Shown one piece after another: positions 23,136 to 53,208 of a stretch of DNA of 53,409 nt. Numbering within the stretch: the stretch's first letter is position 1; each line of letters starts with the position of its first letter. The position numbers and the translations under genes were made by a program. A model generated the notes under the pieces. The model made no database searches and had not been told where the DNA came from. It worked only from the letters and a program-made list of their open reading frames with translations. Source of the stretch: a virus (Duplodnaviria; Caudoviricetes); IMG/VR virus record IMGVR_UViG_3300028923_000001, positions 1 through 53,409 of that record. One strand, written 5' to 3'.

Positions 23136-24149
23136 ATGAAGACGAGAACGTGGATGTATTTGATACTGGTCCTGATCTGGGGGATAATCGCCTTGGCGGC
23201 ACTTGGTGGTTCCGGGCGTGAAGTAATCCTGTTTGAGAAAGTAGTCATGCTGGAGTTGACCGACACCTGCATCGACTATATGACGGGAACGGTGACGGAC
23301 GGTGATTCGGGAGCGGTCATTGTCAGGGTTGATGATGCGGATTTCCGGGGATTTGAAGGGGGTACGGGCGCCGGTCAGGCGATCTGGTTTGATACGGCGG
23401 CGTGGAGCGACACTGGAACTTTCTCGGACAATGATTCGAACATCGCCACGTCGTGGAATCCGGTCATTTTCCCACGGGCGAACCTGTACGGAAACAAGGG
23501 TTGGGATAGCGCGACCGTTGACGTGGATTCCGGCGATAACGACTTCACGGTGGCTATGGAGAGTGCGACGAACGATTCGGAATTTGTGTTACTGGAAGCG
23601 CTGCCGTATGACGTAGCTGGACTGCACGCGACCTTTACGTTCTACCACGATACGATCAAGACGACCTTGGATTCGGCCTGGGCGGCGAAACCGGATACGG
23701 TATCCACGCACGATGAGTCATCGCATGAATTGACCGGTTGGACTTATACAGTCTGGCGCGGCGGGAACATCACGGATACGGTCTGGGTGTCGCCCTGGAA
23801 GGAAGACCCGAACGGGCTGCTCAACAGTTTCTTTCTGCGCTGCTTCAGCTTTTCCAATCTCGATTCGACGATGGCGAAGATTGTGATTTATACCCAATGC
23901 GTCGGCAGCGACACTGGCAGGCGGGTTCCGGTTTGCAGTTTGACCACCGCCGATACGACCGATGATCTCGCTAATTGGACGCATTTTCCGCAACTGGCGG
24001 ATGCAGATACGGCAATCGCACTAGGGGGACATTTATGCAGTCGCTACCAGGCGGTGATAACGGTGACCGATTCCAATTCGCTGCCGGCAGCGTACGGGAC
24101 CTATACGAGTGTTGGATTCAGAGTGGTGAAAAAGACCACAGGAGAATAG
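23136..24149 (+). CDS. Signal-peptide-bearing beta-rich protein; possible virion accessory
   Basis: GAGGAG RBS; MKTRTWMYLILVLIWGIIALAA; 17 D-[S/T] dipeptides by hand count. Confidence 0.7.
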   Translation: MKTRTWMYLILVLIWGIIALAALGGSGREVILFEKVVMLELTDTCIDYMTGTVTDGDSGAVIVRVDDADFRGFEGGTGAGQAIWFDTAAWSDTGTFSDNDSNIATSWNPVIFPRANLYGNKGWDSATVDVDSGDNDFTVAMESATNDSEFVLLEALPYDVAGLHATFTFYHDTIKTTLDSAWAAKPDTVSTHDESSHELTGWTYTVWRGGNITDTVWVSPWKEDPNGLLNSFFLRCFSFSNLDSTMAKIVIYTQCVGSDTGRRVPVCSLTTADTTDDLANWTHFPQLADADTAIALGGHLCSRYQAVITVTDSNSLPAAYGTYTSVGFRVVKKTTGE

Positions 24150-24202
24150 AACCAAAATAGCGTCAGGAAAGGGTTCCTGGCAGGGAAGAAGGAGAAGAGG
24201 AG

Positions 24203-24772
24203 ATGAAAAGGACATTTGGAGTGTTGGTGGTGCTGTTGCTGCTGGTGCTGTCGGTGGTGGTGTTCGTGTCGCCGGAGTTGTTTGGCGCGGGGGGGTGTCG
24301 TATGACGCGAACGATACCGAAGCCTGCGGTACTGGTAAGTGCTGAGTCGGCCTGGGTGAACATGGATACGCTGGTGACTTCGTGGGCGGGTCCACGGTTT
24401 GTCGATCTAGACCAGTATCGGAAAATGGGGGCCACACGAATGATCGTGTCGAGTCGGATTATTATCGCCGATACCGACATCGATTCATTTTATCAGCGGA
24501 TTCGTTTGACTGATGACGGACTGAATTGCATAGTGGCTGATTCACAGAAGTGCTTGACATCAACTGCGGGGAGCGCGGTCTACAAAGACTATCCGCTTGA
24601 TTCGCTCTACCAATTTCAGTACGGACAGGTGAACCTGATGATCTTTGGCGATGCGGCCGGCACAGCGATTCAAACCATTACGGTCCGGACTGACGTGATG
24701 TTCCTTGACTATCAGGGTAGAATGGTGGCGCGACTAACATCCGGACCTCTATCGACGAGTTTCCAGGAGTAA
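24203..24772 (+). CDS. Signal-peptide or membrane-anchored protein; possible virion accessory
   Basis: MKRTFGVLVVLLLLVLSVVVFVS. Confidence 0.65.
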   Translation: MKRTFGVLVVLLLLVLSVVVFVSPELFGAGGCRMTRTIPKPAVLVSAESAWVNMDTLVTSWAGPRFVDLDQYRKMGATRMIVSSRIIIADTDIDSFYQRIRLTDDGLNCIVADSQKCLTSTAGSAVYKDYPLDSLYQFQYGQVNLMIFGDAAGTAIQTITVRTDVMFLDYQGRMVARLTSGPLSTSFQE

Positions 24773-24781
24773 GGCGGGACG

Positions 24782-25168
24782 ATGCCGCGACCGGTTGACA
24801 CACAGCAGGTGGACGACGCACAGACGGAGAGTGCGTTTCTGGCGGAGGGTCAGGGGTACGAAGCGCATCTGAAACTCTGGGAGGAAATGCGCACGCTGAT
24901 AGATACCTATCCGCGGTGGCAAATTCTCAAGGAGTTGTGCGAACAGGAAGCCAGGCACTGCTTTGAAATCTGGATGGGACTGAACAACCTGCATCGACCG
25001 GAAGTGCAAGAACGCGCAATCATGCTCCGGGAGCGCTCGCGAACGTTACGCTGGCTTTGGACCGAAGCGGAACAGCTGGCCAGCGACACTAACAGAGAAA
25101 CGTGGCTCGGCAGGTTGAAGGACTTGCGAGAGAGATTTACACAGTGGCTTAACAGTAAAGGAAAGTAA
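24782..25168 (+). CDS. Small helical protein preceding the scaffold gene
   Basis: GGAG RBS; usual position between portal and scaffold in podoviruses. Confidence 0.55.
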   Translation: MPRPVDTQQVDDAQTESAFLAEGQGYEAHLKLWEEMRTLIDTYPRWQILKELCEQEARHCFEIWMGLNNLHRPEVQERAIMLRERSRTLRWLWTEAEQLASDTNRETWLGRLKDLRERFTQWLNSKGK

Positions 25169-25171
25169 TCG

Positions 25172-26014
25172 ATGCCAGAAGACTTGAACCAAAACAATGC
25201 CGCAGAGTCCGGGGGAGACCCGACAGGTAAAACTGGATCGGAACCTGGAGGTCAGGGCGCAAGCGCCACTGATCGCGGACCAGCCGCAAAGGCCGGTCAA
25301 GACGGTGGCAAGGGAAGTGGATCAGCCGATGGAGAGCTGACGCTCGAAGAATGGAAAGCACGGGCGGAGAAGGCGGAGAAAGAACGCGACCACTATCAGA
25401 ATCGTCTGCAGGATCGCGAGAAGTACCGCAGGACCGGTGCAATGCGTTCCGGCAAGTCCAGAGCGTCCGACGCAGGTGATGATGACGGCGCAAAGCCGCA
25501 GGTGGGTAAGGATGGGAAACCGATCGTTGACGCTTCGGGCAAGCCGGAGGGCGCCCTATCCGAACAGGAAATCGAACAGCGGGTTCGCGATACCATTCTC
25601 GTAAATGATACCGAAGACGAAGTTCGAGAGTACGCGAAGAAGGAATTGGGCGTACCGTATGATGAGACGAACGAGATTTTCGAACTTCTCGATGAATATG
25701 CCCGCACCATCGTCTCTAATGAGCTCAAGCCAGGCGCCAGGTATGGAAGCCTTGATATCGCCGACCAGAAGCAACTAGCAATGGATGTGCTCGCCGGACG
25801 GCACCAGCACGTTCTGATCGACAAGGCACATAAAGCCGGATACGATCAGGGTTACAAGGCGGGAGTCGCGAAGTTGAACAAACTTCTGCCGGGTGGCGGA
25901 GGTGGTACGGACGTGCCGGGAGGTGATGACGGTGGGAAGTCGCAGTTGACTCCGAGTCAACGGCAACTTCAGTCGACGATTGACAAGTTCTCCAAACCAA
26001 GAAAGGCAGGCTGA
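25172..26014 (+). CDS. Putative capsid scaffolding protein
   Basis: Low-complexity acidic/Gly N-terminus and coiled coil, directly before the capsid gene. Confidence 0.65.
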   Translation: MPEDLNQNNAAESGGDPTGKTGSEPGGQGASATDRGPAAKAGQDGGKGSGSADGELTLEEWKARAEKAEKERDHYQNRLQDREKYRRTGAMRSGKSRASDAGDDDGAKPQVGKDGKPIVDASGKPEGALSEQEIEQRVRDTILVNDTEDEVREYAKKELGVPYDETNEIFELLDEYARTIVSNELKPGARYGSLDIADQKQLAMDVLAGRHQHVLIDKAHKAGYDQGYKAGVAKLNKLLPGGGGGTDVPGGDDGGKSQLTPSQRQLQSTIDKFSKPRKAG

Positions 26015-26111
26015 TCTGGGACGCACCCGTAACCCCTCTCAAGAGGGGAATCGGGTGGGGTCAAGCTCCAAGTAGGCTTGACCTGGAATTGTGAAGAAGT
26101 GAGGAAGTGAG

Positions 26112-27386
26112 ATGCCTACAAGTTTAGCCCCAGCCGATGGGTATGTATCGGCAACGGTCCCGCACGAATCGGATTTATCGGCGGCGGGAAAACCGACGAT
26201 TGAAGCGGCAATGTACAACATCGACGAACCGTACGGTGCAGCGCTTAACATACTGAAGCAAATCCGCACGCGGGTGAGAACCGTGGAGTTCGGCAAAGAC
26301 TACAAAGTCGAGTACGAATTCCAAAAGCAACTGCCGCAGTTTGATCGCGTGAGAACCGCTTACGCCGCGGCAGCTACCGCAATCGATGTCGATCACTCTG
26401 AGTATTTCGGCCGGATGGAGTTGTGGCGCAACGAGCGCAACCTGGACAACTTCCTGGTGATCGCAACTCCGGCCTCCGATGCTTTGTCGGTGGTCAAACC
26501 GTTCGGAGTAACGGCGCTTCAGGCCGGCATGGTAGGCGATACCCTGCAACGTCTGGCGACAATCGATTCGGACGGCATGAAGATGGTCGACGTGAAGTAC
26601 GTCAAGAGCGAGTGGGCGTACAACCTGCTCTGGGGACACAGACGTACGACTATGGCGACCGACTGGGCCATGCTGATGAAGATGTACCACTCGAATGCGT
26701 GGGACCGTCTGATGCGGCAGGACCTGGAGCAGTTCAAACAGGAAGAAGCCAGAATGTTCCTGCACGGCAGGCTCGTGTCGGGAACGGTCGACCATTCCAA
26801 TTCGAGCTATATCGGCGGCGCCGGCAGTTCGGCTACTGCTGGAGCTCCGGTGATGCGCGGGTTCATTCAGGATATGCGAGACAACGCTCCGCAGGATTGT
26901 TGCCGTGACGTCTCCGGAACGATGACCTTCAGCCTGTTCTACGACATCATCACCGACTGGGCGTTCCGCAGCCACTCGAAGCAGTTGCTGCTTGCCTGCG
27001 GCAAGGAACTCTCCAAGGGCTTCGGCCTCTGGAAAAACGCCAAAGTGATCATGTCGAGTCAGGAGACGAAGTTCAACCTCATACTCGACAACTGGGAAGT
27101 GGCGCCCGGCAAGACGATCTCGGTCATTTACGATTCATCGCTCGATGTGCCGGATGTCGGCACGCCGACCCGCGGTGAAATGATGATCGGTCTCGATCTG
27201 GGCACCGAGGACGGGGAGGATTACTCGCCGCAGATTCTGCAGGTTCATCCGAATCGCGTCGAGGAGGTAACTCCGGGTGATGGCGCTTCGGCAAAGATCG
27301 TGCAGATGAAAGGTCTGCAGACGATGATCATGCCGCATCAGGAAGCGCAGTTGTTTGTCGAAGGAATTCAGGACGTAGCGGCTTAA
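26112..27386 (+). CDS. Major capsid protein (HK97 fold, SU10/DUF5309-like)
   Basis: 424 aa; KVEYEF, beta insertion domain, YNLLW, helix LEQFKQEEARMFLHG, MRGFI; follows scaffold. Confidence 0.78.
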   Translation: MPTSLAPADGYVSATVPHESDLSAAGKPTIEAAMYNIDEPYGAALNILKQIRTRVRTVEFGKDYKVEYEFQKQLPQFDRVRTAYAAAATAIDVDHSEYFGRMELWRNERNLDNFLVIATPASDALSVVKPFGVTALQAGMVGDTLQRLATIDSDGMKMVDVKYVKSEWAYNLLWGHRRTTMATDWAMLMKMYHSNAWDRLMRQDLEQFKQEEARMFLHGRLVSGTVDHSNSSYIGGAGSSATAGAPVMRGFIQDMRDNAPQDCCRDVSGTMTFSLFYDIITDWAFRSHSKQLLLACGKELSKGFGLWKNAKVIMSSQETKFNLILDNWEVAPGKTISVIYDSSLDVPDVGTPTRGEMMIGLDLGTEDGEDYSPQILQVHPNRVEEVTPGDGASAKIVQMKGLQTMIMPHQEAQLFVEGIQDVAA

Positions 27387-27418
27387 CGCCCGGACTGAGG
27401 TCAATAGATGCACATTTG

Positions 27419-27448
27419 CCCGGCCATCGGAAAGGGTGGCCGGGATTT
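27419..27448 (+). terminator. Hairpin after the capsid gene
   Basis: CCCGGCCATC-GGAAAG-GGTGGCCGGG then ATTT; short U-tract. Confidence 0.5.
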
Positions 27449-27502
27449 GAAAAGAAGATATACCGCTAACCCCTCTCAAGAGGGGAATGAGAGTGAAGAG
27501 AT

Positions 27503-28311: not shown

Positions 28312-29064
28312 ATGGCGCAGGTAGTTGAACAGTTGGTCGCTCTGGTATGTGAGGCATGCCGGACGGTGAATACCAAGACCGGAGATTTGCAAAGACCATC
28401 TGAACAAGCGGTGAAGTTCGCGATTTTGTCGTACGCACAGCGTCTGATGGCCGAGGACTGGAAATTTCTCGAAGATGAAAAAACGGACAGAACCGTGGCG
28501 ACGATAGCGACCTACACGCTCTCGGGGAACAACAACAACTGCGGGAAGATCATCTATCTGTCTTACGACGGTGAGGATTTCACCAAGGGGCATTATTGCG
28601 ACTCGGAGGAATTCGCTCGCTTCTATGATGCCGATAACGCTCAGAACGTGGCGGTGTTGAAATGGACGATCAAGGGATATTTGAATAAGCACCCGATCGC
28701 AACATTTTACGGCACGCCAATGGAGACCGGCAAAGAGATTTTCTACCGGTTCAAGCGGATCATCGATTCGTCGGACCCGCTGGCGGTTTTGCCCGGTGAT
28801 ATGATCGATGTAATCGCCGCCAAGATGATCTGGCGGTTTCATCCGAGTGCGCAGGAAAAGCAGGCGGCATTGCAGGACTGGATAGAGGCATTGGTGGCGG
28901 CGAAGGAACGCTGGATTCCGGAAATCGGACTGCCGCGCGAACCGCAAATCAACGAAGAGCAGATGGACAGGAATTATGAAATCAACATGGCGATGGCTGG
29001 TCACGGCTGTAGTAGTAGCGCTCGGCGCGTGGTCGATGTCGGGACAATGCGCTACCTGCGGTGA
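28312..29064 (+). CDS. Putative head-tail adaptor 1 (no signal peptide)
   Basis: AILSYAQRLMAEDWKFLE...TVATIATYTL...FYGTP...IFYRFKR...P....DVI pattern and position. Confidence 0.6.
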   Translation: MAQVVEQLVALVCEACRTVNTKTGDLQRPSEQAVKFAILSYAQRLMAEDWKFLEDEKTDRTVATIATYTLSGNNNNCGKIIYLSYDGEDFTKGHYCDSEEFARFYDADNAQNVAVLKWTIKGYLNKHPIATFYGTPMETGKEIFYRFKRIIDSSDPLAVLPGDMIDVIAAKMIWRFHPSAQEKQAALQDWIEALVAAKERWIPEIGLPREPQINEEQMDRNYEINMAMAGHGCSSSARRVVDVGTMRYLR

Positions 29065-29710
29065 TTGGATCGAGCTTTACCGATTGATCAGCGCCAATCC
29101 GGACTCGACTCTGGGAGCGAGTCCTCATACGAACGCGCAGATCCGCGTCGCCATGAATGTCGCGCAGAGAGAAATCGCAGCGGCCACCTGCGCAGTGCAA
29201 CGGGAGACGACCTACACTCTCACGGCGAGCGTCTGCTACAAACTGCCGTACCGGTTCATCGCGCCGCGGGCACTGTATCTGATCAGGCCGAACGCCAACG
29301 GTTACGACCGAGTGACGTACCGCGATGCCCAGGAATTTCCCAGTGTGAAAAAACCGGGAGCCGAATTGGCGGGGGAAACGGCCGGGACCAATACCGATCA
29401 ATCCAGGGTCGATTTTGTGACGGAATTTTCGGTGTTTGGGGATTCGCTTAAGATCAATCCCATGCTGGGCGAGGTAACGGGTCACGACTTGCGACTGGAT
29501 TATTGCGCCTATCCCACACCACTGACGAGCGACAGCCAGACCTGCGATTTGCCCGAGTATTGTGATTTCGCGGTGGTCAAATTAGCCGAGTGGATTCTGA
29601 ACTCGGCCAATCTGACAATCACGGAAGAGACGGCAGCGCTGACGAACCTGAGCAGCATGGCGGGGTATTTTGTGGAGCGGTACGCGAGAAAGGTGGAGGC
29701 GGGAAAGTGA
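28976..29710 (+). CDS. Putative head-tail adaptor 2 with N-terminal signal peptide
   Basis: MNVAQREIA...YKLPYRFI...LKINP...LRLDYCAYPTPL...DLPEYCDFAVV adaptor pattern; leader MKSTWRWLVTAVVVALGAWSMSGQCA. Confidence 0.65.
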   Translation: MKSTWRWLVTAVVVALGAWSMSGQCATCGDWIELYRLISANPDSTLGASPHTNAQIRVAMNVAQREIAAATCAVQRETTYTLTASVCYKLPYRFIAPRALYLIRPNANGYDRVTYRDAQEFPSVKKPGAELAGETAGTNTDQSRVDFVTEFSVFGDSLKINPMLGEVTGHDLRLDYCAYPTPLTSDSQTCDLPEYCDFAVVKLAEWILNSANLTITEETAALTNLSSMAGYFVERYARKVEAGK

Positions 29711-30864
29711 TTGAGCTCCATTGCGGAGACTGGGTGCAAGTGCTGAAGACGCTTCCCGACGAGTCTGTCAACTGCGTGGTGACGAGTCCGCCGTACTGGG
29801 GGCTGCGAGACTACGGCATTGCTGGGCAAATCGGACTCGAAAAGACGCCGGAGGAATACGTTGCGAAGATCGTTGCCGGATTCCGTGAGGTCAGGCGGGT
29901 GTTGCGCAAGGACGGGACGTTGTGGTTGAATCTGGGGGATTCGTACGCCGGTTCTGGACGCGGACGTGATGCTGATGGAACTCGAGGTGAAGGACAGGAA
30001 AATACCAAGCAGGGCACGAACCGTGGAGCGATGGCCGGACGCTTGGTGAATACGAAGTCCCTGAGCAAGAATCTTATCGAACAAGGTGCAATCGGGAACG
30101 CATGGGTCAAACCGCCGATGGGTCTCAAGCCGAAAGACTTGTGCATGATACCGGCGCGGATGGCGCTGGCGTTGCAGGCGGATGGTTGGTGGTTGCGGAT
30201 GGATATTATTTGGGCGAAACCGAACCCGATGCCGGAGTCAGTGACCGACAGGCCGACGAAGAGCCACGAATATGTGTTCCTGATGTCGAAGAGCGCGAAG
30301 TATTACTACGACGCGGATGCGATCGCGGAACGGCTTACTGATTCGAGTATCATTCGCCTATCGCAAGATGTTGACGGTCAAGTTGGGTCGGATCGGGTGC
30401 ACGGTAAGACAAACGGCGCAATGAAGGCCGTCTACAAAAAGGAAGGTCGCAACAGCCACTTTCACCAAGACCGAGACCCGCAGCATTCGAGTGAGCGGAA
30501 GCAACGCAAACGCGACGGTACGAATAATGGCAGCGATGGCACGGGATTCCAAACTCACAACGGCAATTCGCTGAACCGGCCAGACGGCAAGCGCAACAAG
30601 CGGTCGGTTTGGACTATTGCCACGCAGGCGATGAAGGAAGCGCACTTTGCGACGTTCCCGGAGAAACTTGTCGAACCGTGCATCCTTGCGGGATGTCCTG
30701 AAGGTGGTGTGGTGCTTGACCCGTTTGCCGGAACCTGTACGGTCGGATTGGTGGCGGCAAGACTCAATCGCAGTTTTATCGGGATCGACCTGAATCCCGA
30801 ATACCTGAAGATGCGGCAGAAGGAGATTGATGCGATTCTCCGGCAGGAACGGATGGCGGTGTGA
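29707..30864 (+). CDS. Beta-class N4-C/N6-A DNA methyltransferase
   Basis: VTSPPYWGLRDY, IIWAKPNPMPES..DRPTKSHEY, HFATFP, VLDPFAG; GTGA overlaps at both ends. Confidence 0.93.
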   Translation: MIELHCGDWVQVLKTLPDESVNCVVTSPPYWGLRDYGIAGQIGLEKTPEEYVAKIVAGFREVRRVLRKDGTLWLNLGDSYAGSGRGRDADGTRGEGQENTKQGTNRGAMAGRLVNTKSLSKNLIEQGAIGNAWVKPPMGLKPKDLCMIPARMALALQADGWWLRMDIIWAKPNPMPESVTDRPTKSHEYVFLMSKSAKYYYDADAIAERLTDSSIIRLSQDVDGQVGSDRVHGKTNGAMKAVYKKEGRNSHFHQDRDPQHSSERKQRKRDGTNNGSDGTGFQTHNGNSLNRPDGKRNKRSVWTIATQAMKEAHFATFPEKLVEPCILAGCPEGGVVLDPFAGTCTVGLVAARLNRSFIGIDLNPEYLKMRQKEIDAILRQERMAV

Positions 30865-33707: not shown

Positions 33708-34156
33708 GACAGCGGTCGCGGATCTGGGATGTGATTCTGTTCACTTTCATGGGGCTGGTGCTGTTCGCGACGGTCTATGCGGCTCTGCAGCCGACCTCGC
33801 TCGAGGAATATAACCCGCAGGACAGCGGCACGGGACTGCGACTCAAGATGAATCGCAATCAGGAACGCATACAGTTCGTGACAAACTCGCAGCGGATCGC
33901 GATCGACACCAACGCGGTGCAGCGGTTCGAAGTCGTGGTGAACGACGTCGACACGGTGACCCTGCCGCAACCGTATACGGACGACGATTTTCAGATTTGC
34001 CCCTGGCCGATGGTCTGGTACGGCACGGCACCGACATCGTTCGGATTGACGGCGGTGGCACTGACCGATTCGACGTTTGTGATCGACATGGGGGGAACGG
34101 ATGACTCGGTCAGGATTCAGGTGATCACGGCCGGATGTATGTTGGGAAGGGAGTGA
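33704..34156 (+). CDS. Small tail-associated protein with signal peptide
   Basis: MRQRSRIWDVILFTFMGLVLFATVYA; beta-rich C-domain (VTLPQPY). Confidence 0.6.
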   Translation: MRQRSRIWDVILFTFMGLVLFATVYAALQPTSLEEYNPQDSGTGLRLKMNRNQERIQFVTNSQRIAIDTNAVQRFEVVVNDVDTVTLPQPYTDDDFQICPWPMVWYGTAPTSFGLTAVALTDSTFVIDMGGTDDSVRIQVITAGCMLGRE

Positions 34157-34158
34157 AG

Positions 34159-36420: not shown

Positions 36421-36426
36421 TAGAAG

Positions 36427-43291: not shown

Positions 43292-43486
43292 ATGGTCGAG
43301 CCTCTCGCACTGATAATGACTGCGATCGCGGCATTCACTCTTGGATACACCCTGGGTTCCAGGACTTCACTTGCCACGGTGAGAGAGATAGCAACGCTGC
43401 GGGAACAAGCCCGGTTGCTTCTCGAGCAGGTGAGTAATCTACGAATTGATGTCGGCGTATTGAAGAAAGTGAGTAAACTCTCATGA
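43292..43486 (+). CDS. Small TM plus coiled-coil protein
   Basis: N-terminal hydrophobic helix. Confidence 0.45.
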   Translation: MVEPLALIMTAIAAFTLGYTLGSRTSLATVREIATLREQARLLLEQVSNLRIDVGVLKKVSKLS

Positions 43487-43587
43487 AGTGGAAGACGGGC
43501 AGAAGTTTGGTGGCGGCGGGAATCGTGGCAGCAGTCACCGCGGCGATCTGGATGCTCTGGGCGTTACATCAGTTGGTGCAGCCATGA
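43483..43587 (+). CDS. 34-aa TM peptide (not in ORF track)
   Basis: MKWKTGRSLVAAGIVAAVTAAIWMLWALHQLVQP, ATGA-coupled on both sides; supports 43584 as the next start. Confidence 0.5.
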   Translation: MKWKTGRSLVAAGIVAAVTAAIWMLWALHQLVQP

Positions 43588-45725: not shown

Positions 45726-46567
45726 ACATCAGACGCCTAAGTTTGTTACTCGGGTTCATTCTGATCTGGTCAATAGCCGGAGCCGCAACGAAAACGTATA
45801 ACTTCGGGTTTTCAAGCAAATGCGGTCTTATCAAACAAGGCACGCCTACAACCTCTTATTCGATTGGAACTGGAGGCAGTCTCGTAATGCCACTCTCCAA
45901 TCGTGATAACTACCAGGTGAGGGCGATTATCGTGGCAGAGTCAAGTCAAGTCTGGTCTGCCAGCGACACGGCGTATAAAGCTGGCATAACCTGGGCTTTT
46001 AATGGTGGGACATTCCCGGTGAAGTTAAGTATCGGGATAGCCGAAGGTCAGGGAGCTTTCACGCTGTTGGTTTATTCAATGAAACGCAGGTATTCGGCTA
46101 ACGCGCACGGTTGCTGGGATTCGGCTTACTATGATATGAAGTTCACTACTGCGGGAGCCGGTAGTGCGACGGACGATGTTATCGAGATGAATGCTGTGAG
46201 CGGTTCAGGAGAAGATAGAGCCTTAGCAGAACTCACTGGCGAATGGACGTACGACCCGGAGACCAGTCCTCCTCCTACAACGCAATACATCTATGTCTAT
46301 CCAGACACAGCATGGATGAGTGGAAGCCGTACAACGGCAACCTGGTCAACAGGTTTCCTTGTGATGATCGCTGACGCAGCCACAAATGACAGTTGTGCGA
46401 TCTTAGTAACAGATGCCGAGGCGGGATATTTAAGCTACATGGCTCCGACATTCGTCTTGCCTTCTTCGGGTTACAAAATCGCGCGCGCCGCGCAGACGGC
46501 GGTAGAACCGCGCGTATCGCAAACAGCCGTGGGAGCGCGAGCAACGCAAACAGGAACGAGCAAGTGA
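45722..46567 (+). CDS. Exported beta-rich protein, possibly DNRLRE/CBM-like
   Basis: MNIRRLSLLLGFILIWSIAGA; GLIKQGTPTTSY and WDSA...TTAGAGSATDD resemble DNRLRE domains. Confidence 0.55.
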   Translation: MNIRRLSLLLGFILIWSIAGAATKTYNFGFSSKCGLIKQGTPTTSYSIGTGGSLVMPLSNRDNYQVRAIIVAESSQVWSASDTAYKAGITWAFNGGTFPVKLSIGIAEGQGAFTLLVYSMKRRYSANAHGCWDSAYYDMKFTTAGAGSATDDVIEMNAVSGSGEDRALAELTGEWTYDPETSPPPTTQYIYVYPDTAWMSGSRTTATWSTGFLVMIADAATNDSCAILVTDAEAGYLSYMAPTFVLPSSGYKIARAAQTAVEPRVSQTAVGARATQTGTSK

Positions 46568-46571
46568 GGGT

Positions 46572-47294
46572 ATGATGAAAAGAACGCTGATACTCTGGTT
46601 GCTACTGGCGACTGGTGCGATCGCACAGTCGTGGAGCTTTACTGTTACCGCAACGGCACTCGAAGACGCCTACTGTTCGCAATTGTCTCCCAACACGAAT
46701 TTCGGAAATCTGGATGCTCTCTGGATCGGTCAGTCGTATGGCGACCGGTGGTTCTATATCGGAGCGGCGACGATCTCGGACTCGCTGGCGAAGTATGGAG
46801 GACAGGTGACGAGTGTCCGGCTGGTCGATTTCGTGCACAACCTCGATGGGGACTTTACCTCAATCGACAGTTTGTCGATCACCTGGAACGCTCTCAAGGT
46901 TGATCCGGTCGAACTGGAGGTCACGGACAATATCTACGCGACGGGGTTGTCATGGCAGGTTCGTGGAGCCAATGGCGACAACGATCAGTATACGCCGAGA
47001 GAGTCTGACGGGGTACACGCAGACTCGGTGATCCTGAGAAGTACGGCCGTCGCGGGTGACTCGATAGTGCTTTACGGGAATCCAGATCACGCTGGTGCTG
47101 AGTTCTATGTCGTCAGGGGAACGCATCTTGGAGCAGGTGAAGCTCGGGCGGTACTTTGCGCCAGTGAGCACCAGGTTTACGATAGTTACAAAACGCCGTA
47201 TTTTGTCTTCGAGGGAGAATCAGGAACCGGAGGCAGTGGAGCGTACAAAAAAGTCGGAAGTGGAGTCAGGCTTGGTTCGGGCGTTAAGATGTAG
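46572..47294 (+). CDS. Exported DNRLRE/CBM96-like domain protein
   Basis: MMKRTLILWLLLATGAIA; EDAYCSQLSPNTNFGNLDALWIG, WQVRGANGDND, ASEH....TPYFVF. Confidence 0.65.
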   Translation: MMKRTLILWLLLATGAIAQSWSFTVTATALEDAYCSQLSPNTNFGNLDALWIGQSYGDRWFYIGAATISDSLAKYGGQVTSVRLVDFVHNLDGDFTSIDSLSITWNALKVDPVELEVTDNIYATGLSWQVRGANGDNDQYTPRESDGVHADSVILRSTAVAGDSIVLYGNPDHAGAEFYVVRGTHLGAGEARAVLCASEHQVYDSYKTPYFVFEGESGTGGSGAYKKVGSGVRLGSGVKM

Positions 47295-50200
47295 TCTGCT
47301 CCTGATGGTCTTGCTATGCGTGAGTGGACAAGGAGCACACAGAATAGGAATGGTTGTCGGAAACGACACGCTGACTACAACCGTGGATGATAGTCTGGCG
47401 AACATTCTCAGATATGATCTCGGTTATGTGGTTCGCAAAGTTCCGCAGGGATTCATGCGAGACTCGTCATCATCCTTCTGGCTGAACAACTTTGACGGGT
47501 TATTGCTGACGCAATACTGGTCAGGGATCGGTTCCTCCTATATGAGCACCTACGGATCGAATCTCGCGGCAATCGCCATCCCGATCGTCACACTCCATCG
47601 GGAGTCTTATCTGCCCTTGAAACTGGCGATGAATCCGGTTTACATCTCTTTCAGTTCTGGCGGCTATACGACCATGCGCAAACGGAGCACAACGCACTGG
47701 ATAACCAGGACGATGCCAGACACGCTTTTCTTTACATGGTCAGGAGGATTGTCAACGGGGCTCTTTGCGTGGTACAATCTGGCCGGCGGAGCAACGAATC
47801 TCTACACCAGAGGTCGCCAAACGAGTCCGCTATGGAACGACTCGACAATGATGATGGTGGTTGATTCCGGAGCAACTCTGACCGTGGGAACAGCACCAGA
47901 ACGGAGGGCAATGTTTGCCGGTTTCTGCCCGCTGGAACTGGATGGCAACATAGCGCCGCCGGGATGGTGTCACTGGAAAACGGCCTTTCGGCGACTATGC
48001 GCCTGGACATTCCACGACACAGCCAATGCCTACGTCAACGAGAGAGCATGCGCTACTCACTACGAGGAAGTCGAGTTCTGCTGGACCGAACTCGGGGATA
48101 CAATAGTCGGGACAAAAGATGGGGAGTATACCTATACCAGTCAACGATCCGGTGGAGACAGTGACAATCCCCCGACTAACTATGGCAAAGTCTTAGGATT
48201 CACAAAGATTAACAATCTGGCACGATATGTTCCGAACGGATACCAAGTCGATTCGATCAGATTCATCAGGCCAGTGATTGCCAATGACAATGCAACCGGA
48301 GGTTGGAGCTTCACTGAATACTGGCGGTATGTTACCCAACCGACAAAGTGGTACTGCCCGTGCCTGACCGATAACGCGACACAGGCGAACTACTGGGCGG
48401 GCGTTTTGGACGACTCGAACTGGGTGAATCGATTCCATATCTCCGGAGTCAGGTTCAACGCGATACCGTGGGACTCTGCCGACTTGGGGACTACCGACTA
48501 CAACGCCACGCCGTTCGATTCGATCTACTTCGACAAGGATGTACGACCGCCCGGGACAGCCGACACGATCATCATTCCGAAAGCCGTCTGTGACCTGTGG
48601 TTGGACAGTGCAAGCAACAACGGTATGATAGGCAAATCCGTCTATTGGACCGGAACAGCATCACCGAACGACGTGGAAGTGTCCCACGGAGACGCCCTTG
48701 AGAGTAACAGCGGAACAAAGATTGAGATCTTCATGTCGCGGGCGACAGTCGGAGACATAACCCCGTCGATCAGAATGTCAGCGTACATGTGTGGCGCGGA
48801 CGGGATCAGTGCGGACTCAGTGTTTCTGAAACAGACGGGAGACGACTCGACCTTCTTTCAGCGATACGAAAACCTGATCGGTCTCGGACAGGGAATGGAC
48901 TCTTACGCACATCAAATGTGGCGATACGCACCGAACGGGATCAAGAGCTTCTACACCAGTCCCTGCGACATGCCGGCGGGACACTCCCTGCCGACGGACA
49001 TCAATCTGCAGCGAAAGTACAACTTCTATACGAACACATTCAGCGAAGTCGACGAGCGCCTCTACCTGCATTATTGGGATGAAACGGTTTCGGACGGCCA
49101 CACGATCACAGGGACCTACTCGGCAAAAGCAGATGGAACACAACTGTGTAATGTCGTTGCCGCAGACTCGATTTCGAGGGCGTTCCACTATACTTGGTGG
49201 TGGGGAGGAAATACCTACACGTATCCGACACGGCCGTTGTTCAGCTTCTACAATGTCATGGCTGAAAACTTCGTGATGACGGCATTCCATTGGGTGATTC
49301 TGAACGACTCCAACGCGGCGTTCTTTCCGGCGGCCGATACCGCCTATCCGACATCTCTTTACTTTGACAACTATATCTATCGTCTCCAAACGACCAACGT
49401 GACCAGCGGCGGACATATCACAGAACTACCCGGTTATGACTGCACACTTCCACGATTGTCGGTAGCGAACGCTTCTGCGGATTCGGAATATCAGGAGAAT
49501 ATGTGGACGGCACTGCGCAACACCGACACTATCACGATAGGTTCAACGGGACAAAAGTGCCGCGCGCAGATCAATGTCGGATCGGAATGCGATTCGTGCT
49601 ACAACGACGACGGCCAACAGATAGGAATCTTCCCGGGAGGCGTCTACGGCTATAACGGTTTTCTGGACACCAACGAGGTGGGACATGTTACCCTGAACTT
49701 TGAGTTTGGCTTTGACCTACTGCAAGTGAAAGGTCAAGCGGGAAACTGGACGCTCGGCGAACTGGCTCAATACGATTCGATTGCGTGCGCCCGGGGAATT
49801 ACGTTCATGTACTGCGCGGCTCCGTGGGATCGACAAGCCAGGTTTTACAGGGAAGGAACATGGGACTATTTCGGCTTTTCGCAAGCCGCCTGGTCGCTCT
49901 ATATGCGGATGATCCTCTACCTGGCAACGCGGTCAGACTCGACCATGTTCTATCCCATGCCGGACTACTACCACGGAGCCTATCAGGGCTATGCTTTTGA
50001 TTGCCCAACGCTTAACGCCGCAGGGGCTTCATGGTACGATTGGACCGGAGACTCTGTCGTAACGGGAGATCATACGCAGAGTTTCGATACCCTCAGTTGG
50101 CAGGAGTGTCTGACCTACGACATCGGAAAGCCACAGGGAATGCCCTTTTTGATGGCGGACACAAGCTATCATTTCCCGGTCGGGTCGGATACCTGGCACG

Positions 50201-50523
50201 GGAAGGTCTGGAAGCGCTGGTATCAGAACGGCGCGTTTGTGCTGGTTCGCCCCTACGATCATGGAGACGTCGGACGCTGGGGAGCGGTGGCAGACACCTC
50301 GACCGGAGGAACACGGGATCTGACCCTGAATATTTCGCTCGGGGACACCTGCAAGGTACTCTTGCCGGACGGGACATTGTCGGACTCGACCTATACGACC
50401 TATCCGCTCAACCCGGCTGACGGATTCGTGTTCGTGCCGGCGACGGGATATACACCGCCCGGCAACGCGGTGTCGATGCGAATTTCAGGAACAAGACTCT
50501 CAGGAGTGAGGATAAGACGATGA
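47236..50523 (+). CDS. Exported multidomain protein with C-terminal GHL15-like domain; putative receptor-binding or depolymerase appendage
   Basis: GGAGG RBS before GTG 47236; LRCSLLLMVLLCVSGQGA; SLYFDNY, KVWKRWYQNGAFVLVRP; collinear similarity to host ORF 1-3447. Confidence 0.68.
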   Translation: MERTKKSEVESGLVRALRCSLLLMVLLCVSGQGAHRIGMVVGNDTLTTTVDDSLANILRYDLGYVVRKVPQGFMRDSSSSFWLNNFDGLLLTQYWSGIGSSYMSTYGSNLAAIAIPIVTLHRESYLPLKLAMNPVYISFSSGGYTTMRKRSTTHWITRTMPDTLFFTWSGGLSTGLFAWYNLAGGATNLYTRGRQTSPLWNDSTMMMVVDSGATLTVGTAPERRAMFAGFCPLELDGNIAPPGWCHWKTAFRRLCAWTFHDTANAYVNERACATHYEEVEFCWTELGDTIVGTKDGEYTYTSQRSGGDSDNPPTNYGKVLGFTKINNLARYVPNGYQVDSIRFIRPVIANDNATGGWSFTEYWRYVTQPTKWYCPCLTDNATQANYWAGVLDDSNWVNRFHISGVRFNAIPWDSADLGTTDYNATPFDSIYFDKDVRPPGTADTIIIPKAVCDLWLDSASNNGMIGKSVYWTGTASPNDVEVSHGDALESNSGTKIEIFMSRATVGDITPSIRMSAYMCGADGISADSVFLKQTGDDSTFFQRYENLIGLGQGMDSYAHQMWRYAPNGIKSFYTSPCDMPAGHSLPTDINLQRKYNFYTNTFSEVDERLYLHYWDETVSDGHTITGTYSAKADGTQLCNVVAADSISRAFHYTWWWGGNTYTYPTRPLFSFYNVMAENFVMTAFHWVILNDSNAAFFPAADTAYPTSLYFDNYIYRLQTTNVTSGGHITELPGYDCTLPRLSVANASADSEYQENMWTALRNTDTITIGSTGQKCRAQINVGSECDSCYNDDGQQIGIFPGGVYGYNGFLDTNEVGHVTLNFEFGFDLLQVKGQAGNWTLGELAQYDSIACARGITFMYCAAPWDRQARFYREGTWDYFGFSQAAWSLYMRMILYLATRSDSTMFYPMPDYYHGAYQGYAFDCPTLNAAGASWYDWTGDSVVTGDHTQSFDTLSWQECLTYDIGKPQGMPFLMADTSYHFPVGSDTWHGKVWKRWYQNGAFVLVRPYDHGDVGRWGAVADTSTGGTRDLTLNISLGDTCKVLLPDGTLSDSTYTTYPLNPADGFVFVPATGYTPPGNAVSMRISGTRLSGVRIRR

Positions 50524-51686
50524 GACGATGGTTGACTTTACTCTTCATGCTGCTGACGGTGAGCGCCGTCGCAGCACCGTACTGGCTGCACGTTTGGGGT
50601 ACTTTCGCTGAATCGAATGTCGGACAAGCCCCAGACCGAATTCGTTTGTGGCTATTTTACCCGGGCGGAGACACGTTAGTCAGTGACACTCTGATTACTC
50701 CAGCGGCGCACTTCAGCTTCGTCCGGGGTGTTGACACCGCAGGTGTCTACAGTGGCCGCATTGATTTTATCAACGGCAGTGATTCAACTCCAGTGGGAAA
50801 CAACTTCTTCACCTATCCCCTGTTGGACACCGGCAGTGTGACCTCTCTAGTGATCGCGGCATTGATAGCTCAGGATATTACCGCGACGATCGACTCGGCC
50901 TGGTTGTCAGCACTCGTAGCGGCGGCGATCCCCGACATCACGGCGAACATTGATTGGGAACAATTCCGAAAAGACGTGGCACTGGTGGTCTGGAATTATC
51001 TGTTGACGGACACAAGCGAAGGCGTGCCTGAAGCCAGTCGGACGATCGGGAATGCAGGAGGATTTGATGACGGCAACGAAGTGACGTTCTACGTCATCGA
51101 CACCGCCAACGGCGATGCAGAGGTATTGCAGCAGCAGTTGTTGATTCGCAGTAGTGGCGGAACGTTAGTGGGGTATCCGAAGACGAACAACGCGGGCGAA
51201 GCGATGGTGGTACTGCCGTCCGCGACCTACGGGATCTCGATGTTGTCGCCGACCTACTATTTGCCGCCGCGCAATGTGACGATCTCCGCAGCGGTGACGG
51301 AGACCCTGCGAGTCGCGGGATTGACAGTCCTGGAGCCGGTGGCAGCGGGACTCTGCATGGTACAGGGAACGGTCAAGGATGTGGACGGAGCGGCGTGCGC
51401 CTACTGTCAAGTGGTGTTCGAGCTCGAGGGCGCGACGGGAAACTGCGTCGACACGGTAGGGGGATTCACGATCATGGATAAGACGGCACGGACGTCGACG
51501 AACGCAGCAGGGACGTTCTCGAAGGAACTGGTTCGGACGGACTACATTCTGTGCGAAGCGGGAGAAAACAACACGAAGCCGAAGTGGCGGGCAACGATCT
51601 GGAAGGGAGAGCGCCGGGCAAGCGCACAGGAATGGAAGTTCTACACCGATTCGAGTTCGGTGAACATAGGGAGTCTGTTGAGATGA
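50520..51686 (+). CDS. Exported protein with transthyretin-like (carboxypeptidase-regulatory-like) domains
   Basis: MRRWLTLLFMLLTVSAVA; KTNNAGEAMVVLPSATY; VQGTVKDVDG...TNAAGTFS. Confidence 0.6.
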   Translation: MRRWLTLLFMLLTVSAVAAPYWLHVWGTFAESNVGQAPDRIRLWLFYPGGDTLVSDTLITPAAHFSFVRGVDTAGVYSGRIDFINGSDSTPVGNNFFTYPLLDTGSVTSLVIAALIAQDITATIDSAWLSALVAAAIPDITANIDWEQFRKDVALVVWNYLLTDTSEGVPEASRTIGNAGGFDDGNEVTFYVIDTANGDAEVLQQQLLIRSSGGTLVGYPKTNNAGEAMVVLPSATYGISMLSPTYYLPPRNVTISAAVTETLRVAGLTVLEPVAAGLCMVQGTVKDVDGAACAYCQVVFELEGATGNCVDTVGGFTIMDKTARTSTNAAGTFSKELVRTDYILCEAGENNTKPKWRATIWKGERRASAQEWKFYTDSSSVNIGSLLR

Positions 51687-52039
51687 AGTTCAAAACGGAA
51701 GAACTGGAAACGCAGTTTGCATCCCACGCACTGCAGGATCGACTGAGGAGGTTGCTGGTCGAACTTGATGGATTTATGTCCGAACAACTGATGCCGGAGA
51801 TGGTGGTGACGTCACTCATCCGGCCGCAGGATCTCAAAAGCGATCATCGGGACGGGCACGCCGCCGATATCCGAGCACACGACTTGAAGACGCCGGACCT
51901 GGCAGGCATCCTGAACTGGGTGCATGAGCACTACTGGCGCGAGACAAAAAGCGTTCATGGATGGCCAGCCCGAGCAGCGTATGCCCACGGTGAAGGGGAG
52001 AATTTCCACATTCATCTGACGGTCGACAGGTTGGTGTAA
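51683..52039 (+). CDS. Peptidase M15-like (LAS) endolysin
   Basis: VVTSLIR...SDHRDGHAADIR...HIH zinc-ligand pattern. Confidence 0.75.
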   Translation: MKFKTEELETQFASHALQDRLRRLLVELDGFMSEQLMPEMVVTSLIRPQDLKSDHRDGHAADIRAHDLKTPDLAGILNWVHEHYWRETKSVHGWPARAAYAHGEGENFHIHLTVDRLV

Positions 52040-52060
52040 CGGAGATCGGAGGACCAGATA

Positions 52061-52234
52061 ATGGCGAAGAAGGTTGGCGGGAAGACCGAGAAGCAATGGA
52101 AGGCATTCAAGGCGGATGTCTACAATAGTGAGGTGAAAGCCGGGAAGTCGCCGGAGAAAGCGGAAGATATCGCGTACGCGACGGCAACCAAGAACGGTTG
52201 GCGCCGTGGCGCATTTACAGCGAGGAGGAAGTGA
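52061..52234 (+). CDS. 57-aa basic ChaB-like protein (not in ORF track)
   Basis: GGAGG RBS; KQWKAFKADVYNSEVKAGKSPEKAEDIAYATATK. Confidence 0.5.
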   Translation: MAKKVGGKTEKQWKAFKADVYNSEVKAGKSPEKAEDIAYATATKNGWRRGAFTARRK

Positions 52235-52428
52235 TGCCGGAACACGTGACAATCTGGAACGTAATGATGCTGTTGCCGCCGTTGATTAACGCGCTTCAGC
52301 GTGCATACGTCAAGGCCAAGGCTGCGGACCCGAACAGTCTCAAGCCGAGTTGGAAGACCTGGGAATTCTGGTTGCTGGTGCTGACCAGTCTGACCGGAGC
52401 CGCTGGGACAGTAGCGGGCGGACAATAG
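52234..52428 (+). CDS. Holin-like membrane peptide
   Basis: GAGGAGG RBS; KPSWKTWEFWLLVLTSL; near endolysin. Confidence 0.5.
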   Translation: MPEHVTIWNVMMLLPPLINALQRAYVKAKAADPNSLKPSWKTWEFWLLVLTSLTGAAGTVAGGQ

Positions 52429-52429
52429 C

Positions 52430-52684
52430 ATGGGAGGACTGCTGGCGAGCGCGAATCTGGATGCGTTGACCAAACAGGGGTTTTGGATGAATCTGCACCT
52501 GGCGATCGTGCTGCTGACGCTGGGAGGAGTCGCATGCGTCCTTCCGGCAGTCTGGGAGTATTGCGTCGGCGCGCAGTTGCTGATCATCGGGTCGGTGTGG
52601 AAATTGAAACTGGTGTTGCCGGAGAAACCGACACACCCCTTAATCCCCTCTCAAGAGGGGAATGACATGAAGGAGAAGGTATGA
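52430..52684 (+). CDS. Small two-TM membrane protein
   Basis: Two hydrophobic segments. Confidence 0.45.
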   Translation: MGGLLASANLDALTKQGFWMNLHLAIVLLTLGGVACVLPAVWEYCVGAQLLIIGSVWKLKLVLPEKPTHPLIPSQEGNDMKEKV

Positions 52685-53208
52685 AGAGGATTTTCGTGGG
52701 GCTGGTGATTTTGGCGATGTTTGTCGTGCCGCCGGTGATGGCAGAGAGTACGTCCACGCTTGCGGGAATCGCCGCGGGTTGGACGGCGGATTACTTCAAC
52801 GAGGAGCCAATGCGTAACGTCGTCGAACGGGCACGGCCGGAAGCATCCGTAGTCCTGAGACTCAGCCAGAAGGTCTGGAGTATGCCGGGGATCGATTGGG
52901 CGACAAATACCGGACTGGTCAGAATTGTCGGTGCGATTTACACTCATGTCTACACCTGGAAATCGATATCGTTCTACACGGGAGGATCGATGTCGGCCCT
53001 GCAGTTTGCCACGGACGGCGTTGTCAAGGTGAACTCCCAACTCAGCGGATCGATCGACGTCGGAGGTACATGGAGAATTACCAAGGGTGTCCGAATGGGT
53101 CTGGCGCTGAAACAGGAAGCAGCGACCAAAATCGGCGACACTGAACCGATCGTGAAATCGGAAACGCGGGTGACGACACTCAAAATAGGGACGATTATCA
53201 GTTTGTGA
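52681..53208 (+). CDS. Exported, probably outer-membrane beta-stranded protein
   Basis: MKRIFVGLVILAMFVVPPVMA; amphipathic strands ending TLKIGTIISL. Confidence 0.55.
   Translation: MKRIFVGLVILAMFVVPPVMAESTSTLAGIAAGWTADYFNEEPMRNVVERARPEASVVLRLSQKVWSMPGIDWATNTGLVRIVGAIYTHVYTWKSISFYTGGSMSALQFATDGVVKVNSQLSGSIDVGGTWRITKGVRMGLALKQEAATKIGDTEPIVKSETRVTTLKIGTIISL

Follow-up and report, generated by a model that had tools for sequence, protein, structure and literature searches.

The window analysed here, a single contig of 53,409 bases from a virus record, is best explained as the genome of an uncultured temperate podovirus, and its tail proteins carry the marks of export from the cytoplasm. N-terminal leaders of the Sec type were found on the head-to-tail adaptor (28976..29710, plus strand), the nozzle (30861..33707, plus strand), the small protein encoded after it and the distal fibre-like and appendage proteins, whereas the terminase, portal, putative capsid and putative ejection proteins have none. 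To judge from the sequences, these leaders are genuine, conserved, restricted to this group of proteins and accompanied by an excess of the motif used by the general O-glycosylation system of Bacteroidota. The leaders had first been noticed in an initial annotation of the window; that observation is confirmed here and extended to a large clade. Three kinds of sequence evidence make a good case for export of the proteins, and assembly of the virion in two compartments is a plausible reading of the same data.

Leaders on the tail proteins and their conservation

All eleven leaders quoted in the initial annotation, on the open reading frames (ORFs) at 23136, 24203, 28976, 30861, 33704, 43584, 45722, 46572, 47236, 50520 and 52681, were present in the translations. 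Leaders were scored with a heuristic rule of our own, a mean Kyte-Doolittle hydropathy of at least 2.4 over 10 residues beginning in the first 26 residues, which was applied to a curated list of 51 plus-strand genes. The rule flagged 13 of the 24 genes from position 23136 onward and one of the 27 upstream of it (12718; one-sided Fisher p = 5.4e-5). It recovered 10 of the 11 quoted leaders; the remaining one, MMKRTLILWLLLATGAIAQ of the ORF at 46572, scores 2.33, just under the threshold, and reads as a textbook signal peptide. In agreement with the leaderless set named in the initial annotation, the large terminase, the portal, a scaffold-like protein, the putative capsid, the protein at 28312 and three large putative ejection proteins were not flagged.

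The same rule was applied to the late coding sequences of three characterised phages. It flagged one of 20 in SU10 (the holin), none of 18 in T7 and one of 26 in crAss001 (gp27, a lysis regulator), and none of the flagged proteins is a tail protein. Since these controls are near zero, the enrichment in the window is real and unusual, and the statement that adaptor and nozzle proteins of characterised phages lack signal peptides was borne out in all three. The rule also flags some spurious ORFs, for example a 5' extension of the terminase ORF in the related contig C28 (described below) and some minus-strand ORFs.

The leader-including starts at 23136, 24203, 33704, 46572, 50520 and 52681 each have a GGAG-type ribosome-binding site immediately before them. 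For the ORF at 47236, a TTG at 47272 with GGAG 7 nucleotides (nt) upstream is the more likely start and gives the leader MVRALRCSLLLMVLLCVSGQGA; this corrects the start used initially. The adaptor start at 28976 has a weak ribosome-binding site and overlaps the gene at 28312 by 89 nt, and the nozzle starts with GTG in a 4-nt overlap, also with a weak ribosome-binding site. By the same kind of heuristic reading, the signal-peptide pattern of a positive n-region, a hydrophobic h-region and small residues at -3 and -1 is clear in 45722, 46572, 47272, 50520, 52681 and 33704, and weak or anchor-like in 24203, 43584 and 30861.

The nozzle leader is kept in all 10 non-self homologues recovered by a word search (31-62% identity). 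These leaders consist of a positive stretch and a hydrophobic core, usually with a small-x-small ending, while the leader sequence itself drifts; the alignment turns solid about 10 residues past the leader, and the internal methionine is not conserved. In the adaptor homologue P0013 (54% identity) the leader is conserved residue by residue in part, and an adaptor leader was also present in four of four further genomes (C28, C32, C48 and L030). The alternative of a start downstream of the leaders was thus tested by conservation in homologues, and together with the six strong GGAG sites this argues that the leaders are not start artefacts.

A scan of species-representative genomes returned two related loci. 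They lie in different metagenome-assembled genomes that share a phylum, one of them labelled uncultured Ignavibacteria. Three related contigs from these genomes, C28, C32 and C48, have one layout in common. Post-portal proteins with leaders are followed by a protein without one, after which the adaptor, the nozzle and a small protein all bear leaders; three large leaderless proteins come next, and then leader-bearing distal proteins and a leaderless endolysin-like protein. L030, a distant viral contig with a GC content of 39% and a nozzle about 20% identical to that of the window, has the leaderless protein, leader-bearing adaptor and leader-bearing nozzle in succession before it ends inside the nozzle.

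The breadth of the feature was assessed with a nozzle profile, which gave 5865 matches at E-values up to 0.001 among 1.84 billion representative proteins. Among the 157 non-self representatives inspected, a leader was present in 54 of 74 with at least 700 residues, in 5 of 75 with 440-699 residues and in one of 8 with fewer than 440. In the short leaderless nozzles only a few residues precede a conserved FSGGLN, and the leader-bearing ones add 20-35 residues in front of it. These sequences mark the nozzle leader as a lineage-specific addition, and one that dozens of 50%-identity clusters have retained. Searching at BLAST sensitivity turned up no cultured relative: the nozzle and putative capsid of the window and two distant leader-bearing nozzles (P0073 and P0040) all lacked a tblastn match among 50,697 phage records, and a viral contig collection searched with the nozzle alone and with its alignment (A1) yielded no confirmed close relative. 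Automated gene calls cut all or part of the leader in three of five comparable records, namely P0001 (the nozzle call of the window), P0012 (its adaptor call, which starts at residue 37) and P0014 (an adaptor homologue), and kept it in P0013 and in P0010, the nozzle protein of C48. Such downstream starts explain how the feature could escape notice and make it under-reported in databases.

The identity of the two central proteins was established by several methods. The protein at 28976 matches the Pfam family SU10_adaptor (PF24175; E-value 7.8e-10, 39.9 bits versus a cut-off of 27), with residues 54-212 aligned to profile positions 22-164, and its homologues P0012-P0014 are also labelled PF24175. 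An AlphaFold2 (AF2) model built on six sequences, with a predicted local distance difference test (pLDDT) score of 73, gave as its best Foldseek match the SU10 tail adaptor 7z47_B (E-value 5.3e-7, template-modelling (TM) scores 0.53/0.56), followed by the adaptors of A4, GP4, KHP30, Pa223, VP1, crAss001 and N4. A match of the adaptor profile to Patched-1 in the PDB was rejected as chance. The protein at 30861 matches phrog_3287, 'virion structural protein' (E-value 1.8e-16), and the nozzle profile from alignment A1 matched the Pa223 tail chain 9nwi_Y (1e-8) and the VP1 nozzle gp16 (5e-4) in the PDB, over profile positions 660-806. The AF2 model of 30861 is only moderately reliable (pLDDT 62.5); its best Foldseek match is the SU10 virion chain 7z4b_DW (2e-15), followed by A4, Pa223, VP1, the crAss001 muzzle, P22 gp10 and T7 gp12. 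The Foldseek probability was 1.00 to the nozzle chains of SU10, A4, Pa223, VP1, crAss001, P22 and T7, with TM scores of only 0.2-0.4. Pfam, PDB profile searches and Foldseek therefore agree with the folds proposed in the initial annotation, and by sequence and predicted structure 28976 is an SU10-type adaptor and 30861 is a nozzle.

Free of their leaders, the adaptor and nozzle equal their SU10 counterparts in length, so the leader is an add-on. The adaptor leader comprises about 26 residues; that of the 948-residue nozzle is MRNRCTRRKGFLAMVGMLVMAAVVLG. In this trait the window nozzle departs from its class, the nozzles of SU10, T7 and crAss001 being leaderless. Because 28976 belongs to a portal-binding adaptor class, the boundary between leaderless and leader-bearing proteins lies at or next to the portal. 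The initial annotation had read 28312 as a first adaptor and proposed export of everything distal to it. The split into leader-bearing and leaderless proteins stands, but no family or PDB match supports an adaptor role for 28312.

Signatures of periplasmic maturation

In the general O-glycosylation system of Bacteroidota, glycans are attached to Ser or Thr within the motif D-S/T-(A/I/L/V/M/T) (PMC12871550, PMC8550257). The system is described as acting on noncytoplasmic proteins only, with transfer in the periplasm, and an engineered motif suffices for modification; the observed-to-expected ratio of the motif has served to map where in the phylum the system occurs (PMC12871550). We counted D[ST][AILVMT] and derived expected counts from shuffled sequences. 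The leader-bearing proteins of the window contain 82 motifs where 25.0 +/- 4.6 are expected (ratio 3.3), a count reached by none of 500 shuffles. The leaderless late proteins contain 10 against 15.5 expected (ratio 0.6) and the early proteins 5 against 5.0 (ratio 1.0).

The same division was seen in the relatives. Leader-bearing proteins have 97 motifs versus 21.2 expected in C28 (ratio 4.57), 46 versus 14.1 in C32 (3.25) and 36 versus 9.8 in C48 (3.66), and the corresponding leaderless counts are 17 versus 16.7 (1.02), 23 versus 20.4 (1.13) and 49 versus 27.5 (1.78). In the leaderless set of C48, 32 of the 49 motifs lie in two proteins, the nozzle, whose long n-region failed the rule, and a protein cut by the contig end. 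Among the nozzle representatives, the 59 with a leader carry 749 motifs against 220.5 expected (ratio 3.40) and the 86 without a leader 296 against 222.9 (1.33), a difference with a Mann-Whitney p of 4e-19. Eight permuted or related control motifs gave ratios of 0.5-1.4 in the leader sets.

Tail proteins of the three control phages have ratios of 1.04 for SU10 (15 motifs versus 14.4 expected), 0.21 for T7 (1 versus 4.8) and 1.26 for crAss001 (23 versus 18.2). Since the tail of crAss001, a Bacteroides phage, has no excess, the excess is general neither to tail proteins nor to phages of Bacteroidota. A single crAss001 protein, the lysis-regulatory gp27 (25093-25695), has 4 motifs where 0.3 are expected and is the only leader-bearing late protein of that phage, so a Bacteroides phage that has been cultured shows the signature too, on a non-structural protein.

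Taken one at a time, the window proteins with a significant excess are 23136 (9 motifs versus 2.9 expected, reached by 0 of 1000 shuffles), 30861 (13 versus 4.1, 1 of 1000), 43584 (18 versus 6.5, 0 of 1000), 46572 (4 versus 0.9, 9 of 1000), 47272 (21 versus 4.8, 0 of 1000) and 50520 (7 versus 1.8, 3 of 1000); the excess in 33704 is marginal (3 versus 0.7, 34 of 1000). The beta-barrel-like proteins at 3573-4175 and 52681 have no motif at all. As a whole, the excess points to periplasmic exposure of the leader-bearing proteins. Cysteine content was also compared (1.37% in leader-bearing and 0.62% in leaderless late proteins) and was rejected as evidence of export, the difference being driven by the Cys-free internal proteins.

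The ends of the leaders provide a further signature. Substrates of Bacteroidetes signal peptidase I typically expose an N-terminal Gln, which is cyclised, and this Q-rule is described as specific to Bacteroidetes rather than general to the FCB group (PMC5837995, PMC10653852). Of 60 nozzle leaders, 28 close with a small residue and then Gln; among equally long control segments within the same proteins the pair was seen in 239 of 2466 (9.7%; binomial p = 1.9e-13). Because a host cleavage-site preference in these proteins is otherwise hard to explain, the host enzyme appears to cut them. The adaptor leader is closed by a canonical lipobox in C48 (LSAC) and C32 (LVAC), and the window adaptor has SGQC, which is non-canonical as a lipobox. 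Orthologous leaders switch among peptidase-I-like, lipoprotein-like and anchor-like types.

The sequence evidence makes an Ignavibacteria-like member of the broadly defined Bacteroidota the most likely host. The rarity of the Q-rule in the window would fit a host outside Bacteroidetes proper. The tRNA-Thr region of the window was tried as a host marker and rejected as non-discriminating, since it matches 278 of 285 genomes of the phylum, at 95% identity at best.

A two-compartment assembly route and its alternatives

In the textbook view, the assembly of tailed phages is wholly cytoplasmic. The route that we propose for the window phage would divide it between two compartments. The adaptor, nozzle, small post-nozzle protein and distal fibre and appendage proteins would be exported via Sec, with leaders mostly of the signal-peptidase-I type, some anchor-like and, on the adaptor of relatives, of the lipoprotein type. 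The terminase, portal, capsid and ejection proteins, which are leaderless, would remain in the cytoplasm, and heads would be filled with DNA there. Once exported, the tail proteins would become substrates of host periplasmic maturation, chiefly Bacteroidota O-glycosylation, along with Gln-to-pyroglutamate capping of N termini in many relatives, lipid in some and possibly disulfides. The tail would mature outside the cytoplasm as a separate glycosylated sub-assembly and would meet the DNA-filled heads only once the holin breaches the inner membrane at lysis.

The rationale for such a route could be that export opens access to host modifications that stabilise extracellular proteins, a stabilisation that is the title claim of PMC10653852. 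The cost would be that the tail must join the head across the membrane or after its breach. The endolysin-like protein at 51683 has no leader, which fits holin-dependent lysis that opens the inner membrane and releases the cytoplasmic contents. As a speculation, the leaderless proteins at 27503 and 28312, encoded between capsid and adaptor, would be head-completion or stopper proteins that hold the DNA until joining.

The initial annotation had placed head and cargo in the cytoplasm and the tail outside it. The targeting part of that proposal is supported by the conserved leaders, the folds and the 3.4-fold motif excess, with the qualification that the leaders of 24203 and 43584 are anchor-like. 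Beyond targeting, we infer leader cleavage, glycosylation, periplasmic assembly and late joining of heads from the sequence signatures, and our confidence differs among the steps. That the tail proteins cross the inner membrane is, on these signatures, highly likely. Their glycosylation by the host system is likely too, although clearly less certain. That virions are made from the exported pool, by joining after permeabilisation, has on these signatures a chance slightly short of even. Taken as a whole, an exported, host-matured tail that joins heads at lysis is the best explanation and one that we regard as probable.

Several points weigh against this route. Podovirus tails assemble stepwise on the portal of a filled head, and both the retention of DNA in heads until lysis and efficient joining after it are left unexplained. 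The leader evidence comes from sequence read with a heuristic rule, and the capsid and ejection proteins were assigned by position. In the small proteins 24203 (2 motifs versus 1.1 expected), 28976 and 45722 (3 versus 1.2), the motif excess does not reach significance by itself. The host assignment rests on the co-binning of relatives in two metagenome-assembled genomes and on motifs, with neither a CRISPR nor an integration-site match behind it and with a best tRNA-Thr match of only 95%. Gln stands at +1 in only one of the eleven window leaders, that of 46572. A clean small-x-small site is missing from several leaders, among them those of 24203 and 43584 and that of the nozzle, which ends VLG before MRPE, and these three may remain uncleaved. 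Finally, start-capable codons lie just past the leaders of the adaptor (ATG 29036, TTG 29084) and the nozzle (ATG 30939), from which leaderless cytoplasmic isoforms may be made.

Uncleaved leaders would be the rule if most of them were signal or lipid anchors that hold the tail proteins on the periplasmic face, as an assembly platform, until lysis or release. Such anchoring would suit 24203, 43584 and the C28 nozzle, where a long hydrophobic stretch shows no clear cleavage site, as well as the lipoboxes of the C32 and C48 adaptor orthologues and the finding that only one of the eleven window leaders follows the Q-rule. Many homologues, however, have short classic leaders with small-x-small and Gln at +1, at the frequency given above (28/60 versus 9.7%), and orthologues swap leader type, which suggests that translocation and not tethering is what has been conserved. 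We regard general anchoring as unlikely.

The downstream start codons bear on a different possibility, in which each protein has two isoforms: an exported, glycosylated long form at the cell surface, active in superinfection exclusion, receptor masking or as vesicle decoys, and a short form that builds a cytoplasmic tail. The position of these codons at or just past the predicted cleavage sites of the window adaptor and nozzle is what speaks for it, as do the three records in which gene callers pick downstream starts and the interpretation of Q-rule proteins of Porphyromonas gingivalis phages as host-surface modifiers (PMC10367356). Yet the internal methionine is not conserved among nozzle homologues, the internal starts of 30861 have no ribosome-binding site before them, and the motif excess, conserved across a large clade, spans the full length of core structural proteins, as would hardly be expected of a tail made in the cytoplasm. 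The probability of this explanation is small.

Export would also be dispensable if the hydrophobic N termini were membrane-active helices, retained in the virion for envelope penetration at infection. AF2 models the leaders as helices, and membrane-active segments are a known feature of podovirus tails and ejection proteins. The positive n-region, small-x-small ending, lipobox and Gln at +1 are nonetheless traits of Sec and of signal peptidases I and II and not of fusion helices, and such N termini would be recognised by the targeting machinery anyway. The motif excess indicates periplasmic exposure, and the putative ejection proteins, which are the ones expected to be membrane-active, have no leaders, so that we consider this explanation very improbable. 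The least credible explanation, with a negligible chance of being right, is that the leaders are longest-ORF artefacts or chance: the 89-nt overlap of 28976, the GTG and weak ribosome-binding site of 30861 and the false 5' extensions that longest-ORF calling produced via palindromic repeats in C28 would allow it, but leaders were found in every homologue examined, with conserved residues in that of the adaptor, six starts have strong ribosome-binding sites, and the contrast of 13/24 with 1/27 is seen beside controls near zero.

Export of a separately matured tail, the reading that we prefer, can be compared with known systems. Kuravirus SU10 (7z47, 7z4b) provides the best match of both the adaptor and nozzle models, as well as the Pfam family that the adaptor passes. 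It also has the same gene order of adaptor, nozzle, small protein and large internal proteins, and one of the syntenic capsid proteins matches SU10_MCP. Unlike the window phage, SU10 has a leaderless adaptor and nozzle and a tail without motif excess (15 versus 14.4); its sequence identity to the window is too low for tblastn, and the window phage is temperate with an integrase. Siphoviruses and myoviruses make heads and tails on independent pathways, both cytoplasmic, before joining them, and mycobacteriophages glycosylate virion proteins with phage-encoded glycosyltransferases. In the window phage, by contrast, the inner membrane would separate the two pathways and glycosylation would rely on host machinery.

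The coat proteins of Inoviridae have signal peptides and are assembled at the membrane and extruded without lysis, and these phages have no icosahedral head, terminase or portal. Use of the host Sec pathway by their virion proteins (PMC4823517) is the point of likeness; the window phage differs in having leaders on the tail half of the virion only. In concept, the nearest precedent identified is that of the phages of P. gingivalis, a Bacteroidota host, which likewise encode proteins with Sec signal peptides whose cleavage would expose Gln and which were judged to be adapted to the host secretion system (Matrishin et al. 2023, PMC10367356). In the available text of that paper, five genes of unknown function are read as outer-membrane modifiers and core tail proteins are not implicated. 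The O-glycosylation work on Bacteroidota concerns the identical three-residue motif, which is enriched in the window proteins with export signals, and uses the identical ratio measure; the accessible part of that work describes cellular proteins and makes no mention of phages (PMC12871550), and the window is known from sequence only. In the literature covered, with subscription journals and supplements outside its scope, we found no description of export signals on adaptor or nozzle proteins and none of O-glycosylation of phage virions by a host system.

If the proposed route is true, the joining of head and tail crosses a membrane or waits for lysis, which would be a new morphogenetic route affecting lysis timing and burst efficiency. 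Virion tails would then bear host O-glycans and pyroglutamate caps, with possible effects on stability, resistance to proteases, receptor binding and defence or immune recognition. Only tentatively do we extend this picture to two-compartment morphogenesis across a large uncultured podovirus clade of Bacteroidota-type hosts, with released virions that carry host-type tail glycans. The combination of a leader with an excess of D-S/T-hydrophobic motifs could serve as a cheap predictor, among uncultured phages, of exported virion proteins and of Bacteroidota hosts.

Gene content of the window

The late region of the window begins near 17 kb. Searches of Pfam, PHROGs and NCBIfam gave no match for the terminase, portal, capsid, scaffold, 27503, 28312 or the three internal proteins, and single-sequence PDB searches gave none for the terminase, capsid, 28312 or adaptor. 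Profiles were built for the terminase, portal and capsid from five syntenic proteins, those of the window and of four syntenic relatives. With these, the leaderless protein at 17588..19198 (plus strand) matches T4 gp17 (1.1e-14), as expected of a large terminase, and that at 21211..23064 (plus strand), also leaderless, matches the portal of cyanophage A4 (9k09_D, 9.1e-6). The putative major capsid protein (26112..27386, plus strand; leaderless, one motif) was assigned by position, having no direct family match and no profile match in the PDB; its syntenic set of five proteins includes one with a match to SU10_MCP (2.3e-7) and one with a match to Phage_capsid_4.

Two leader-bearing proteins are encoded behind the portal. 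The first (23136..24149, plus strand, 337 residues) begins with MKTRTWMYLILVLIWGIIALAA, preceded by GGAG, and has leader-bearing proteins at its position in C28 and C48. It has no family match in Pfam or PHROGs, and an ESM Atlas search was uninformative (model pLDDT 0.38). The second (24203..24772, plus strand, 189 residues), with a strong GGAG site and a rule score H10 of 3.96, has a long hydrophobic leader that looks like a membrane anchor, and its C28 homologue (17683-18228, 33% identity) is leader-bearing as well. Both had been counted in the tail module in the initial annotation, but they are located in the head module and their roles are unassigned. The protein directly upstream of the adaptor (28312..29064, plus strand) has no assigned function, no leader, no motif and no match in Pfam, PHROGs or the PDB, and its syntenic counterpart is leaderless in five of five genomes.

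Between the adaptor and nozzle genes of the window, a gene for an N6_N4_Mtase DNA methylase (29590-30864, E-value 1.1e-48) is inserted; at this position C28 has a different gene, of 381 amino acids. The small leader-bearing protein after the nozzle (33704..34156, plus strand, 150 residues, with GGAGG upstream) may be a needle or plug by its position, and C28, C32 and C48 each have a small leader-bearing ORF directly after the nozzle. It is followed by the three large putative ejection or internal proteins (34135..42926, plus strand; 761, 350 and 1816 residues), which are leaderless and were assigned by position and composition only. They have no family match, no cysteine and 3 motifs in 2927 residues, with none in the 1816-residue protein, and their homologues in C28, C32 and C48 are leaderless.

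The distal region opens with a tail-fibre-like protein (43584..45725, plus strand, 713 residues) that matches the PHROG tail-fibre families phrog_892 (3.8e-6) and phrog_28766 (1.5e-4) over residues 409-577 of the longer ORF; its leader is anchor-like, with a hydrophobic stretch of about 22 residues and an n-region of net charge 0. A 281-residue protein (45722..46567, plus strand) with the signal-peptide-like leader MNIRRLSLLLGFILIWSIAGA has a leader-bearing homologue in C48 (40342-41190). The next protein (46572..47294, plus strand, 240 residues), whose signal peptide ends AIA before Q, has a weak CBM96 match that is under the cut-off (E-value 0.036). The large distal protein (47272..50523, plus strand, 1083 residues from the 47272 start) has a signal peptide, no family match and partial similarity to a leader-bearing protein of C28 (37344-41420). 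Behind it, a 388-residue protein (50520..51686, plus strand) combines a GGAG site with the textbook signal peptide MRRWLTLLFMLLTVSAVA, and its C-terminal part resembles leader-bearing proteins of C28 (43552-45576) and C48 (32-1225).

The putative endolysin (51683..52039, plus strand) has no leader and has homologues in C48 (46% identity) and C32 (38%). With no match in Pfam or NCBIfam, it was named a putative M15-type peptidase from reading its sequence. Three small proteins with hydrophobic segments and no family match, at 42980-43288 (102 residues), 43292-43486 (64 residues) and 52430-52684 (84 residues), are candidates for a holin or for lysis timing. After the lysis genes comes a 175-residue signal-peptide protein (52681..53208, plus strand) with a GGAG site; C28 and C32 each end with a leader-bearing homologue of equal length. 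The window protein had been counted in the tail module, and its leader does stand; its place beside the lysis genes and its lack of glycosylation motifs speak against a tail role, and it is probably an outer-membrane or lysis accessory protein. A small signal-peptide protein at 3573-4175 matches Pfam OMP_b-brl (E-value 1.5e-6) and, like 52681, has no D-S/T-hydrophobic motif. Either of the two could have an outer-membrane or spanin-like function.

Nearly all long ORFs of the window are on the plus strand, and the window has no terminal repeat. A minus-strand integrase gene (4553-5566) adjoins a full tRNA-Thr(TGT) gene (4352-4425), and a DUF5131 protein and a DNA methylase are also encoded. A comparison of the tRNA region with the rest of the window found no direct repeat of at least 12 nt, and hence no second attachment site. 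The two ends of the window do not join, because the right end closes with a terminator-like hairpin. At the left end, an ORF open at its 5' side (1-3447, at least 1148 residues, with its start beyond the window) has Ig-like domains (Rha78A N-terminal Ig, tail-tip J second Ig) and 9 motifs where 5.6 are expected.

Among the relatives, the Ignavibacteria-labelled genome G002 holds two different phage-like contigs, C28 and C32, of 48 and 45 kb, with no clear host flanks. The longest-ORF calls of C28 at 27294, 36532, 41421, 37344 and 47062 run through repeated palindromic elements, and the true starts lie downstream. These repeats give recurring pseudo-peptides at the 5' ends of ORFs and resemble terminator or REP-like hairpins between late genes.

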